Shown here one piece after another: positions 32,972-37,295 of a stretch of DNA of 64,000 nucleotides; position 1 is the first letter of the stretch; each line of letters opens with the position of its first letter. The translations under genes and the position numbers were made by a program. The notes below the pieces were generated by a model, which was not told where the DNA came from, ran no database searches, and worked only from the letters and a program-made list of their open reading frames with translations. The stretch comes from Candidatus Methylomirabilota bacterium (GTDB lineage Bacteria; Methylomirabilota; Methylomirabilia; Rokubacteriales; DASRDR01), in the NCBI GenBank assembly GCA_036005065.1, contig DASYQW010000062.1, positions 569 through 64,568 of the forward strand, given 5' to 3'.

Positions 32972-33859
32972 ATGCGCTACGCGTGGCCGAAGGGCAAGCG
33001 GTCGGCCGTCGTGCTCTCGTTCGACTTCGACGCCGAATCGGGGTTTCTCTTCCGTCAGCCGGAGAAGGCGCGACGGAGCCTGGCGGACCTCGAGGAGCGC
33101 CGGTTCGGGCCCCGGGTCGGGGTTGACCGGATCCTGAGGCTGCTCGATCGGGTGAAGCTCCGCGCGAGCTTCTTCATCCCCGGCTGGACCGTCGAGAATC
33201 ACCTGGCCGAGTCGAAGCGCATCCGCGACGCCGGCCACGAGATCGGCGCCCACGGGAACGTCCACGAGGCCGTCGACGGGATGGAGCGCGAGCCGGAGGA
33301 GGCCATCATGCGGGCCCAGCTGGCGATCCTCAAGGACCACCTCGGCGTCCGCCCGGCCGGCTACCGCTCCCCGTCGTGGGACGTCAACGTGTGGACCCCG
33401 GACATCTTGAAGGCCCACGGGTTCCTCTACGACACGTCCCTCATGGGCAACGACGTGCCCTACGAGATCGACACCGCTCACGGGCCGCTCGTCGAGGTGC
33501 CGGTCCAGTGGCTGCTCGACGATGCCCCGCTCTTCCGCCACGTCTACGGGGCCACCAACGCGATCGCCGACCCGGCTCGCGTCTTCACGCTCTGGAGCCG
33601 CGAGTTCGCCGGGATGCACGCCGAGAGCGGCTGCTTCGTGTTGACGTGCCACCCGTTCATCATCGGCCGCGCCTCCCGCATCGCCATGCTCGAAGAGCTC
33701 GTCCGCTACATGCGCCGATCCTCGGGCGTGTGGTTCACCACCTGCGAGGAGGTGGCCCGCTGGCACTCCGCGCAGCCGGCGACCCTGCCCCGGGCGCCGG
33801 CTCCGGGCCGAACGCCGCGCCCGCGGGCGTCGGCCGGCCGCGCGCGCCCGGCACGATAG
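32972..33859 (+). CDS. Polysaccharide deacetylase (CE4, PgdA/PuuE-like)
   Basis: SFDFD, HEIGAHGNVHE, GYRSP, FLYDTSLM, LTCHP. Confidence 0.9.
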   Translation: MRYAWPKGKRSAVVLSFDFDAESGFLFRQPEKARRSLADLEERRFGPRVGVDRILRLLDRVKLRASFFIPGWTVENHLAESKRIRDAGHEIGAHGNVHEAVDGMEREPEEAIMRAQLAILKDHLGVRPAGYRSPSWDVNVWTPDILKAHGFLYDTSLMGNDVPYEIDTAHGPLVEVPVQWLLDDAPLFRHVYGATNAIADPARVFTLWSREFAGMHAESGCFVLTCHPFIIGRASRIAMLEELVRYMRRSSGVWFTTCEEVARWHSAQPATLPRAPAPGRTPRPRASAGRARPAR

Positions 33860-33954
33860 CGGCGCGCGCGTCCCGGGCGCCCTCGGCGTGCGTCCAGCCG
33901 AGATCGCGGGCGCCGCCGAGCCGGCCCCTTCAGCCGCACCTTCAGCCGACCGCC

Positions 33955-33983
33955 TTGCCAAGGCTGCGAACAACCGCTATTCT
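33955..33983 (+). promoter_or_regulatory. Putative sigma70 promoter of the MT-like/rpsU/RRM unit
   Basis: TTGCCA-N17-TATTCT. Confidence 0.65.
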
Positions 33984-33988
33984 GTGGA

Positions 33989-34261
33989 GTGTCGCCAGGC
34001 ATTCCAGCGGAGCTGGTGGCAGGGGGGTTCTCCCGCGTGAGTCACCAGGCACCGCGTCCGTTCCATCGCCTCTCGAGCCCGGGACCCGCTTCCGCCTATC
34101 GCGAGGCGCCCTGTCGGCATCCCGCCTGCCGCTGCTCTGCCCGTCCGGAACGGCGGTACTGTAGCGACTCCTGCGCCGCCGTCGGCGCCGGGCGCGGATC
34201 GATCGGTGCCCCGTGCCAATGCGAACACGATCTCTGTACGGAAACCCGGCGTGAAGCGTAG
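33989..34261 (+). CDS. Small Cys/His-rich metallothionein-like protein
   Basis: C-terminal CRHPACRC-x6-RYCSDSC-x13-CQCEHDLC has 8 Cys and 2 His, including the YCSxxC core of SmtA-type bacterial metallothioneins. The start is either GTG 33989 (leaderless) or GTG 34037 (after AGGGGGG). Confidence 0.7.
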   Translation: MSPGIPAELVAGGFSRVSHQAPRPFHRLSSPGPASAYREAPCRHPACRCSARPERRYCSDSCAAVGAGRGSIGAPCQCEHDLCTETRREA

Positions 34262-34318
34262 CGCGCCGGAGAAGCCCTCGGTGGCCGCCCGAGCGCCCCG
34301 GGGCGGGGGGAGGCCTCG

Positions 34319-34513
34319 ATGAAGATCGAGGTATTCGACAACCAGATCGAGCCCGCGCTCAAGGCGCTCAAGAAAGAGATGGCCACCGGAGGCCTGTTCA
34401 AGGAGATGAAGCGACGGGCCTACTATGAGAAGCCTTCAGTGAGGCGGAAGCGCAAGCAAGCCGAGGCCCGGAAGCGGCGGCGACGGGCGGCCCGGCGCTC
34501 GCATGGCGACTAG
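34319..34513 (+). CDS. rpsU: 30S ribosomal protein bS21
   Basis: IEPALKALKK...FKEMKRRAYYEKPSVRRKRKQAEARKR. Strong SD GGGGAGG. Confidence 0.95.
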   Translation: MKIEVFDNQIEPALKALKKEMATGGLFKEMKRRAYYEKPSVRRKRKQAEARKRRRRAARRSHGD

Positions 34514-34600
34514 TGGATTGTCGGCCATGACCACGCGCCGCGTGAGGCCCGGTCACAGCGGACCTGATCGGTCCGCCACAACACGAGAGAGGAGGCGGCC

Positions 34601-34996
34601 ATTCCACCAAGGATCTTCGTAGGCAACCTGAGCTTCCAGACGACCGCGCAGCAGCTCACGCAGTTCCTGTCGGCGGCAGGCAACGTCGTAGGGGTCCACC
34701 TTCCCAGCGATCGCGAGACGGGCCAGCCTCGTGGTTTCGCGTTCGTGGAGTTTTCGAGCGAGGCCGAGGCGGCCGACGCCATCCGGCTCTTCAACGATCG
34801 GGACCTCGATGGCCGGAAGCTGCGGGTCAACATGGCCGACGATCGGCCGCCGCGGGCCGGCGGCTTTCGCACCGATCGGCCCTCCGGCTCCTTCGGCGCG
34901 GGCTCCCGCGGCGACGGTGCCCCGCCGCCCTCGAAGAGGCCGTTCAGGAGCAAGGGGAGCCGCCGCGGCATCCGGGCGCGCAAGCGGAGCCTCTGA
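34601..34996 (+). CDS. RRM (RNP-1) RNA-binding protein with a probable ATT start codon
   Basis: RNP2 IFVGNLSF and RNP1 RGFAFVEF are in one frame. There is an in-frame TGA at 34565 and no ATG/GTG/TTG before RNP2. GGAGG at 34591-34595 is 5 nt before the ATT at 34601. Confidence 0.85.
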   Translation: MPPRIFVGNLSFQTTAQQLTQFLSAAGNVVGVHLPSDRETGQPRGFAFVEFSSEAEAADAIRLFNDRDLDGRKLRVNMADDRPPRAGGFRTDRPSGSFGAGSRGDGAPPPSKRPFRSKGSRRGIRARKRSL

Positions 34997-35240
34997 CCGT
35001 CCGTTACCCTGGCATCCGGCTTCGTTTCGGGTGACACGGCGCGTTCCTCGGTCCCCCGGAGGGCGCGCACACCTCGCGCGTCGCCAGCACTCGCCCGCCT
35101 CACGCTCGCGCCGTCTCGGGTCCGCCACCGCGTTCGGGGCCGAAGGTCCTTCGGGCCGGCATCCCGAAGCGGCGTCGCGCGTCCGCGTCGACGGAGACCC
35201 CACCACGACGATCCAGCCGCGGTAGCCCGGAGATTCGAGC

Positions 35241-37295
35241 CTATTCCGCGGATCCGTCGGCCGGCGCCGGGCGGAGTAGCCGGACCTCGACGGCGGCGCC
35301 GTCGGGGACGCCGAGGATCGCCAGCGCGTCGGTCGGCAGCTCGCCGTGGTCGCGGTCGTCGCCCGGCGCGACGTCGACCCACGCCCGGAGGGGAGCGCCG
35401 CGCGGGTTGACCAGCTCGACCACGGCGCCGCCGGTGACGCCGAGGCGGGCGGCGGCAGCGCCGCCGAGGCGGATCACGAGGTGGCTGACGGCGTCCGGGG
35501 TGTGGCCGGGCGGCCGCACCCGCACCACGAGCCAGGGGCGGGCGCGGGCCAGGCGCGCCCGACGATCGCGCGTCGCATCCGCGTCGATGGCGCCGCCTCG
35601 AAGCACCAGCCCGTAGGCCGCGTCGGCCCGCTCGAGGCTCACGAGCCCCTCGGCGACGTCGCGCGCCGCCACCCCGAGATCGCGCTCCAGCGGATCGCCA
35701 TAGCCGCCACCCCCTGAGCTCTCCATCACCACGACGTCGCCCGCCTGCAAGGGGAAGCCGCTGACCTTGCCCGGCAGCGGGGAGGGCTCGATCGCCGCTC
35801 CGTCGCGGAGGACGTAGAACCGGTTCGGGGCGCCCGGCCGGCCGCCGCAGACGCCGTAGGGCGGGAGCAGGTTCCGTTCCGAGAGGACCGAGAGCTGCGC
35901 GCCCGGCGCGAGCACGCGGATCTCGCGGCGCAGGCCGAGGCCACCTCGCCACCGCCCGTCGCCGCCCGAGTCGACACGCAGCGCCGTCCGCTCCACGCGG
36001 AGCGGATACTTCTGCTCGACCGCCTCGACGGGCTGGATCGTCGTCATGTCGCTCTCGGTGAACGCGCGCACGGCGTTGTTCCCGTCGCCGCCTTCGAACG
36101 CGCCGGTCCCACCGGCCGGGTACTCGTAGAAGATGAACGTCGCCCCCGCGCGCGGGTCGACGCCGCCCACGTAGCAGTGGTTCCCGCCCCCTTTGAGGTC
36201 GCCCGTCACCTTCCCCGCGATGGCCTGGGCGAGCGCCCCCATCACCGCCGACTCCACCGCGTACTTGATCTCCACCATCCCGCCGCACGGCGCCGGCAGC
36301 CGCGCGTTGACGACCGTGCCCTCGGGGGCGAGGACGGTGATGGGCCGCAGCGCGCCCGAGTTGATCTCGCCGCCGGGATCGAGGAACGCCTTGAGGATCG
36401 TGAACGCGCCGGTGGGCGCCATGGCGGGACCCACGTTGGTCGGCCCGGCCGTCTGGGGCGCGGAGCCGGACAGGTCGACGGTCACCGCGTCGCCGGCGAC
36501 GACCAGGCGCGCACGGATCCGGATGGGCTCGAGCCGCTGGCGGCCGCCTTCGAGGTAGGCCTCGTAACGGTACTCGCCGTCCGGCAGCTCCCGGATCTTC
36601 CGGCGCATCCGCCGCTCGGCGCGGTCGAGCAGCTCGACCACGCACGCCCGTAGTGGCGCAATCCCGTACCGCGCGATGAGCGCCTCGACCCGCTCGGCCG
36701 CCTTGCGGCAGGTCCCGAGCATGGCCCGGAAGTCCCCTTCCCGGTCCCGCGAGACCCGCATGTTCGCAAACAGCAGATCGAGCGCTGCCTGGTCGGGGCG
36801 CCCCCGCTGAACGATCTTGATCGGCGGGATGCGGATCCCCTCCTGGTAGATCTCCGTCACGGCGCCGGAGAGGCTCCCGGCGGTCATCCCGCCCACGTCG
36901 CCCCAGTGGGCCCGGACGACGGGGCAGAGGAAGAGGCGGCCCTCGGCGAACAAGGGATAGATCATGGCGACGTCGTTCAGATGCGTCCCGCCCGTGTAGG
37001 GATCGTTGTGGAGGAAGATGTCGCCCGGGTGGATGTCCTCGCCGAACTTCTCGCGCACGGCCCGCATCGACCAGGCGATGGGCACGATGTGGAGCGGGTG
37101 GTCCTGTCCGCGGGACATCGCGACGATCTCGGCGTCCTCACTCATCAGCACGCAGGAGAAGTCCTCGCCCTCGTAGATGATGGAGGAGTAGGCGGTCCGT
37201 ACGAGGGTCACGCGCATCTCGCGCACGATCGAGGACAGGGCCTCGCGGACGACCTCGAGCGTGATGGGATCGATCACCGCGCCCTCCAGGCTCAC
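35241..37295 (-). CDS. Hydantoinase B/oxoprolinase family protein with a C-terminal extra domain
   Basis: PGDIFLHNDPYTGGTHLND, HWGDVGG, EIYQEG, GGGGYGDP. GTGA overlap with hydantoinase A. Confidence 0.92.
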   Translation of the reverse strand: MSLEGAVIDPITLEVVREALSSIVREMRVTLVRTAYSSIIYEGEDFSCVLMSEDAEIVAMSRGQDHPLHIVPIAWSMRAVREKFGEDIHPGDIFLHNDPYTGGTHLNDVAMIYPLFAEGRLFLCPVVRAHWGDVGGMTAGSLSGAVTEIYQEGIRIPPIKIVQRGRPDQAALDLLFANMRVSRDREGDFRAMLGTCRKAAERVEALIARYGIAPLRACVVELLDRAERRMRRKIRELPDGEYRYEAYLEGGRQRLEPIRIRARLVVAGDAVTVDLSGSAPQTAGPTNVGPAMAPTGAFTILKAFLDPGGEINSGALRPITVLAPEGTVVNARLPAPCGGMVEIKYAVESAVMGALAQAIAGKVTGDLKGGGNHCYVGGVDPRAGATFIFYEYPAGGTGAFEGGDGNNAVRAFTESDMTTIQPVEAVEQKYPLRVERTALRVDSGGDGRWRGGLGLRREIRVLAPGAQLSVLSERNLLPPYGVCGGRPGAPNRFYVLRDGAAIEPSPLPGKVSGFPLQAGDVVVMESSGGGGYGDPLERDLGVAARDVAEGLVSLERADAAYGLVLRGGAIDADATRDRRARLARARPWLVVRVRPPGHTPDAVSHLVIRLGGAAAARLGVTGGAVVELVNPRGAPLRAWVDVAPGDDRDHGELPTDALAILGVPDGAAVEVRLLRPAPADGSAE

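Follow-up and report, generated by a model that had tools for sequence, protein, structure and literature searches.

The subject of this study is a small gene unit on the plus strand of a 64,000-nt stretch of contig DASYQW010000062.1 (this whole stretch is called the window, and all coordinates refer to it). It occupies positions 33955-34996 and contains three short genes, which encode a cysteine-rich mini-protein (open reading frame 1, ORF1), the ribosomal protein bS21 (rpsU) and an RNA-binding protein with an RRM domain. Judged by comparison of the available sequences, the AUU start of the RRM gene is genuine. It is the strongest and broadest result of the analysis, a near-cognate start codon that is kept by selection. 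The three genes are read here, with moderate confidence, as one conserved tricistronic operon, of which the most likely role would be to adjust the initiation of translation and the handling of mRNA to stress, for instance cold. The elements of the unit are the following.

33955-33983, plus strand: sigma-70-like promoter, -35 hexamer TTGCCA (33955-33960), 17-nt spacer, -10 hexamer TATTCT (33978-33983)
33989-34036, plus strand: 5' leader of about 48 nt with an 8-bp hairpin, a 14-nt loop and a G-rich Shine-Dalgarno sequence
34037-34261, plus strand: gene of the Cys8-His mini-protein (ORF1), 74 amino acids (aa), GTG start, as placed by the starts of homologues and the codon-position pattern
34319-34513, plus strand: rpsU, bS21, 64 aa (Pfam S21, TIGR00030), preceded by GGGAGG
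34590-34595, plus strand: AGGAGG, the Shine-Dalgarno sequence of the RRM gene, with a spacing of 5 nt to the ATT, read from the sequence
34601-34996, plus strand: RRM protein gene, 131 aa, AUU start; RRM domain, Gly/Arg/Pro-rich linker and basic tail KGSRRGIRARKRSL

The RRM gene starts at AUU

The product of the third gene scored 70.7 bits against the RRM_1 model (PF00076, cut-off 20.7) and has both the RNP2 (IFVGNL) and the RNP1 (RGFAFVEF) motif. With the NCBIfam model NF058537 (Rbp_regulator) it reached 77.6 bits against a cut-off of 100, which means that it resembles this family and is not a member by threshold. Its frame is closed upstream by a TGA at 34565-34567, 12 codons before the ATT, and no ATG, GTG or TTG is present between this stop and RNP2. 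The sequence from 34019 to 34976 was reproduced with 0 differences by contigs from four independent soil metagenomes. The ATT is therefore not an assembly error.

Start codons were surveyed in 81 members of the RRM subfamily, which spans Binatia, Acidobacteriota, NC10, Chloroflexota and others, by reading the codon four positions before the motif [KR][VI]FVGNL. ATT was found in 44 members, ATC in 21, ATG in 13 and TTG in 2, so that 65 of the 81 use ATT or ATC. Of the 21 ATC starts, one is displaced upstream by a codon, and in the last locus, L079, an ATG likewise precedes that position by one codon. In nearly all members AGGAG is situated 5-8 nt upstream of the start, and in more than 30 the frame is closed upstream by a stop and lacks any canonical start. 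The pentamer CCATT is invariant in eleven Binatia-type loci while nearby synonymous sites vary. In the five lineages that carry the three-gene unit or its first half (the module lineages) all internal isoleucine codons of the unit genes are ATC (25 of 25, 0 ATT), and the start of the RRM gene is ATT in four of four. The differences at the three codon positions of the RRM gene (0.15/0.11/0.35) indicate purifying selection, and the in-frame peptide upstream of it is not conserved.

The subfamily also has a C-terminal motif in common, KGSRR[GN]xRx[RK]KR[SG][LF]. In the literature no paper was found that describes an AUU or AUC start for these proteins, and the combination of this start with a conserved basic C-terminal tail appears to be new.

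Public gene calls truncate the AUU-start gene (83, 77 and 103 aa), extend it or miss it, as can be seen in the window (34745-34996), L081 (4424-4657), L089 (2811-3122) and L091 (1311-1706). The product from the window is stored as the 83-aa fragment (P0126). At least one NCBI record starts the coding sequence at the ATT. Callers of the Prodigal type cannot see this family properly; public calls also miss the ORF1 gene in L089-L092. When the linker of the RRM protein (34779 to 34882 in the window) was compared with contigs of the metagenome runs X2 and X3, its length appeared free to vary. A second, ordinary RRM gene with an ATG start (MASKLYVGGL) is present beside the unit in three lineages (L089 3296-3622, L091 1774-2124 and L021 581-880), in L089 and L091 after it. 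This implies that one operon can hold both an AUG-start and an AUU-start RRM gene.

The order of the genes is conserved between unrelated neighbours

The arrangements of the three genes in the window and in its relatives are listed below.

ORF1, rpsU, RRM gene (ATT), the full unit: window; L081/L082/L088; L089/L090; L091/L092; S21 91-92%, RRM protein 75-82% and ORF1 product 62-72% identical to the window
ORF1, rpsU only: L083/L084; no RRM gene after rpsU
RRM gene (ATG), rpsU, RRM gene (ATT), without ORF1: L021
rpsU, RRM gene (ATT), without ORF1: L095; S21 80% identical
RRM gene (ATG), rpsU: L096/L097; the cyanobacterial order

The full three-gene order is thus found in four lineages and its first half in a fifth, and the neighbours differ in each. 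Among the module lineages S21 is 89-94% identical, and those other than the window have a bS21 that is 89-92% identical. The gap between ORF1 and rpsU is 67 nt at its widest and gives way to a 4-nt overlap of stop and start codon at its narrowest, with overlap in two lineages; that between rpsU and the RRM gene is 27-28 nt in the module relatives, 10 nt in L095 and 87 nt in the window. Judged from these comparisons, the module is clade-specific and clearly maintained, its genes being kept together by selection. An RRM fragment that is 80% identical bears the name Candidatus Rokubacteria, and the GC content is 70-73%; the module lineage is for these reasons probably a soil clade close to Candidatus Rokubacteria.

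An earlier note on this DNA had described a TTGCCA-N17-TATTCT promoter followed by three short co-oriented genes, a Cys8/His2 peptide, rpsU and an AUU-start RRM gene, with gaps of 57 nt (ORF1 to rpsU) and 87 nt (rpsU to the RRM gene) and no terminator between them. This description stands in every part, as do two of the three properties on which the note had staked its unit, synteny in relatives and conservation of the Cys-rich frame at the protein level. The promoter is the sole match to its pattern in 33700-35400, where shuffled sequences gave an expectation of 0.0, and both hexamers and their position are kept in five lineages, with TTGTCA/TATCCT as the variant of L089. No terminator-like site occurs in 33700-35400, also not after the RRM gene. 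The bS21 product scored 62.1 bits against Pfam S21 (PF01165, cut-off 27, E 4e-17) and 63.6 bits against the equivalog model TIGR00030 (cut-off 28.95).

The near-palindrome CCTTGCCAAGG (33952-33962), conserved in three lineages, encloses the -35 hexamer; either an operator or mere promoter context may account for it. The spacer between rpsU and the RRM gene in the window (34514-34600, 87 nt) holds lineage-specific extra sequence with two small hairpins, GUGAGGCCCGGUCAC and GGACCUGAUCGGUCC. The window has one S21 gene. In the related metagenome-assembled genome GCA_040961615.1 two rpsU loci that are 92% alike were found (L093 2501-2704 and L095 1704-1904), the former alone and the latter followed, 10 nt on, by an ATT-start RRM gene. 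Because of these two loci the rpsU copy of the module may in this group be a paralogue, provided that the bin is not a mixture.

The unit is flanked upstream by a peptide ABC transporter and a polysaccharide deacetylase and downstream, on the opposite strand, by hydantoinase B/A; neither flank is related to it. In an Rfam scan of 33000-36000 the sole match was one below threshold, to CRISPR-DR29 at 35169-35204 (21.8 bits against a gathering cut-off of 39, E 0.22). It has no repeat array around it and was taken as a chance match.

ORF1 encodes a divergent metallothionein-like mini-protein

A word-indexed protein search gave no homologue of ORF1. An exhaustive search with HMMER through 1.84 billion representatives yielded four relatives (P0001-P0004), six-frame searches located the gene in two further lineages where public gene callers had not called it, and a metagenome scan with the alignment of these proteins added one locus only. 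The Cys-rich core contains 8 Cys and 2 His, and all eight Cys as well as His64 are invariant across five lineages. Differences at codon positions 1, 2 and 3 amount to 0.22, 0.19 and 0.42; the protein is therefore under purifying selection. The N-terminal 25 residues (MSHQxPR..GPASAY) are also conserved, though they hold no metal ligands.

Searches of Pfam, NCBIfam and, with the single sequence, of the PDB returned nothing for ORF1. The Pfam metallothionein model PF02069 gave 7.7 bits against a gathering cut-off of 33 (10.3 bits for P0003 and no match for P0001, P0002 and P0004), and because of this score ORF1 is not filed as a member. When a profile of the ORF1 family was run against all PDB sequences, exactly three matched, all of them bacterial metallothioneins (SmtA, 1jjd; Pseudomonas, 6gv7 and 6gv6), with E values of 0.5-5. 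In the alignment of the profile to 1jjd the invariant residues C26, C31, C42 and C46 coincide with the zinc-finger site A of SmtA. A Tyr and an Ala of SmtA were described as conserved by Blindauer and co-workers (PMC3323870). The equivalents of SmtA Tyr31 and Ala37 are present in ORF1 as Y41 (Phe in P0003) and the invariant A47. An AlphaFold2 model from the five-sequence alignment was unusable (predicted local distance difference test, pLDDT, 47.6). The SmtA-type metallothionein of the earlier note is upheld by the site A ligands, the Tyr/Ala pair and the PDB matches, and fails by the Pfam score.

With BmtA and SmtA (PF02069; 1jjd, 6gv6, 6gv7) the ORF1 product shares the core C-x4-C-x-C ... 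Y-C-S-x-x-C-A, which corresponds to site A with its Tyr and Ala, a Cys/His-rich C-terminus and a small gene that is easily overlooked by gene callers. It differs from them in the second ligand, which is His, Tyr or Asn instead of Cys, in the C-terminal pattern (CxCxHxxC instead of CxHxxCxC), in the ligand-free N-terminal extension, in its place as first cistron of an rpsU operon and in lying far under the Pfam cut-off. From these features the most fitting description is that of a divergent mini-protein of the BmtA zinc-finger/metallothionein type, with 25 conserved N-terminal residues of its own, and metal binding is predicted. The distant relative P0004 (L086 2706-3252; L087 997-1543) is encoded directly after the general-stress gene csbD and a DUF5670 gene, which echoes the CsbD neighbour of a cyanobacterial BmtA (PMC3323870).

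A nearly invariant leader precedes the mini-protein gene

The start of ORF1 had been set 48 nt too far upstream in the earlier note. The close homologues P0001 (69% identical) and P0002 (65%) begin with M-[SN]-H-Q aligned to the GTG at 34037. Because the homologues start at a GTG or ATG aligned to this position, GTG 34037 is taken as the true start and 33989-34036 as a non-coding leader. To read the leader as an N-terminal extension of ORF1 (start 33989) would also conflict with its being out of frame with ORF1 in L089 and L091, two of the five lineages, and with its lack of variation of the synonymous type.

The 8-bp stem is formed by GUCGCCAG (33991-33998) and CUGGUGGC (34013-34020), two G-U pairs included. 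It closes a 14-nt loop (33999-34012) that consists of an invariant GCAUUC and a variable patch, and it is followed by the Shine-Dalgarno sequence AGGGGGG (34021-34027), a G-rich site 7-10 nt ahead of the start codon. In the 36 nt after the promoter, GTCGCCAGGCATTC-N7-GCTGGTGGCAGGGGG, the pairwise difference is 7.8%, all of it inside the 7-nt loop patch, whereas the three genes show differences of 27-42% at third codon positions. A covariance model of the leader matched only 10 loci, all bearing the metallothionein-like gene, at 68-77 bits, and the Rfam scan of 33000-36000 gave no match to it. The leader hairpin appears to be a new conserved element that is confined to loci with the metallothionein-like gene. 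We infer that it acts as a 5'-terminal stabiliser or as a protein-binding site.

The loop (GCAUUCCAGCG) was also considered as a mimic of the start region of the RRM gene (CCAUUCCNGCG). Shared strings of 6-9 nt were reached by 1-33% of random windows, which is not significant, and the idea was dropped. In a 1249-nt metagenome contig (run X1) the leader, up to 34028, is joined directly to 34308 before rpsU, so that the 279 nt with the metallothionein-like gene are skipped, and the upstream part of the contig agrees with the promoter of the L089 type. This contig may represent a naturally occurring variant that lacks the metallothionein-like gene and has rpsU driven by the same leader.

Discussion

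The preferred role of the operon, adaptation to stress, is proposed by analogy with two cold-regulated operons, the rbpA1-rpsU cluster of Anabaena variabilis M3 (Sato 1994, as cited in PMC4424878) and cspA-rpsU of Sinorhizobium meliloti (O'Connell and Thomashow 2000, as cited in PMC4424878). A single mRNA would begin about 6 nt past the -10 hexamer. Its 5'-terminal hairpin would protect the transcript or bind a regulator and would abut the G-rich ribosome-binding site from which the first cistron is translated. Translation of rpsU would start from its own GGGAGG, or by coupling where the genes overlap. Because the RRM protein would be made from an AUU behind a perfect AGGAGG, its output is expected to be low and to be set by the stringency against near-cognate starts, which may be an IF3-type discrimination as for infC. 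In this way the operon would deliver bS21, a ribosomal protein related to initiation, along with an RNA-binding protein in throttled amount. The metallothionein-like gene and the leader would be a clade-specific addition, tied to the other two genes by co-expression only on present evidence.

In extracts of Escherichia coli an mRNA with an AUU start is a poor competitor of AUG mRNAs, above all in the cold, and non-AUG starts in general suffer strongly from ppGpp and nutrient limitation (PMC5499595). The RRM protein may consequently be a product that is gated by growth conditions rather than a simple cold-shock protein.

Several observations weigh against the operon as proposed. The weakness of AUU starts in the cold in E. 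coli (PMC5499595) fits poorly with a simple cold induction of the RRM protein, and the dependence on IF3 is drawn by analogy. Co-transcription, the start of the transcript and any induction by stress are all predictions from sequence. The folding energy of the leader hairpin is no better than that of shuffled sequences (z -0.48) and is unremarkable for 70% GC; its stem never varies and hence offers no covariation. Of the 80 loci that hold the nearest RRM relatives in genomes, 79 showed no rpsU within 3 kb, and two distant homologues of the metallothionein-like gene are not adjacent to rpsU and stand alone or beside csbD, which is why the linkage of both genes to rpsU is regarded as clade-specific.

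These last findings also bear on the possibility that an ordinary rpsU of the housekeeping kind is accompanied here by two passenger genes, in an order that reflects recent common ancestry without functional coupling. The module lineages are indeed close (S21 89-94% identical), most relatives of the RRM and metallothionein-like genes are located elsewhere in the genome, and S21 scores as a normal equivalog. However, order, promoter and leader persist in the face of 27-42% third-position differences and rearranged flanks, the intergenic gaps shrink to overlaps, and the adjacency of S21 and RRM genes recurs in more distant lineages and in cyanobacteria. We consider mere passengers rather unlikely.

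The Cys-rich protein could also be a structural zinc-finger mini-protein that, with bS21 and the RRM protein as partners, acts on RNA or the ribosome, and would then be an unrecognised ribosome-associated factor. The core of BmtA has a zinc-finger fold, and one zinc ion is enough for it to be ordered (PMC3323870), the ligand-free N-terminus of the mini-protein is conserved, and its gene is strictly co-located with rpsU, sometimes overlapping it. Distant homologues, however, occur without rpsU, and the structure prediction was unusable. This proposal, too, is improbable as matters stand.

The earlier note had gone further and suggested that the operon couples metal status to ribosome or initiation remodelling, with the Cys-rich protein as a metallothionein that buffers zinc, cadmium or copper. 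The conserved BmtA zinc-finger site and Cys/His-rich C-terminus are in keeping with this, as is the invariable place of the metallothionein-like gene as first cistron, tightly joined to rpsU and overlapping it in two lineages. In none of the lineages, however, does a metal-sensor gene (SmtB/ArsR, Zur) or a metal transporter adjoin the unit, and no recognisable operator was seen either. The distant homologues are found away from rpsU, alone or beside a general-stress gene, the Pfam metallothionein model remains at 7.7 bits against 33, one metagenome contig seemingly joins the leader to rpsU without the gene, and bS21 is not known to be a zinc protein. The coupling to metal status is not supported by these results, and we rate it as more doubtful still.

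That the RRM gene is not translated from the AUU at all, being a pseudogene or depending on a distant upstream start, on frameshifting or on read-through from rpsU, is hardly credible: gene callers do give truncated or N-terminally extended products, but the upstream stop without a canonical start before RNP2 recurs in more than 30 loci, ATG or TTG stands at the exact position of the ATT in 15 homologues, the upstream in-frame peptide is not conserved, the gene itself is under purifying selection, and most family members do not lie downstream of rpsU.

The proposed stress-adaptive operon with its AUU-start RRM gene is of interest for several reasons. Few bacterial genes have a conserved near-cognate start, and those starts of which the function is understood, as in infC, are tied to a regulatory circuit. 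A subfamily with AUU or AUC starts in several poorly studied soil phyla provides a handle on initiation-level control in organisms without genetics, and it explains why these RRM genes are truncated or overlooked in most metagenome annotations. The operon extends the pairing of S21 with an RNA chaperone beyond cyanobacteria and rhizobia, and brings in a zinc-finger/metallothionein-like partner that was not expected, as well as a conserved leader RNA that is new. More speculatively, and on balance unlikely, the KRSL-tail RRM subfamily could be the second broadly conserved family after infC in which an AUU/AUC start reads out initiation stringency; its product would act on the 30S subunit with bS21, the zinc-finger mini-protein would be a third ribosome-associated partner in a Rokubacteria-like clade, and the leader hairpin would be a feedback site for one of the three proteins.

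Comparison with known systems

The earlier note had regarded the three-gene combination as new to the literature. This applies to the metallothionein-like partner, which appears to be new, and not to the S21-RRM half, which is of a kind already known from cyanobacterial rbpA1-rpsU. As in the clusters of Sato (1994) and of O'Connell and Thomashow (2000), as far as they are described in PMC4424878, rpsU is co-oriented with and adjacent to a small gene of the RNA-binding or chaperone type (RRM or cold-shock domain) and lies apart from other ribosomal protein genes; in the window the RRM gene and rpsU are neighbours in the same orientation with an 87-nt gap. Unlike in the Anabaena cluster, the order here is rpsU followed by the RRM gene, whereas L096/L097 keep the RRM gene before rpsU. 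Further differences from both clusters, as cited there, are the AUU start, the basic KRSL tail in place of a plain Gly-rich one, the metallothionein-like first cistron and the invariant leader hairpin.

The RRM protein resembles the cyanobacterial proteins Rbp1, RbpA and Rbp3 in its single N-terminal RRM (RNP2 IFVGNL, RNP1 RGFAFVEF), its disordered C-terminal region and a link to ribosomes, with which Rbp3 co-purifies (PMC12232666). It belongs to a different subfamily, the best relatives of which are found in Binatia, Acidobacteriota and NC10, and instead of a Gly-rich tail or PDPRWA it has KGSRR[GN]xRx[RK]KR[SG][LF] as well as a non-canonical start.

The nearest parallel for this start is infC, the gene of IF3, in which a conserved AUU is used for autoregulation. 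In both cases a near-cognate AUU is kept by selection behind a good ribosome-binding site and in a setting related to translation. The RRM subfamily differs from infC in that its product is an RRM protein and not an initiation factor, that AUC is used as well, and that some of its members have reverted to AUG or UUG.

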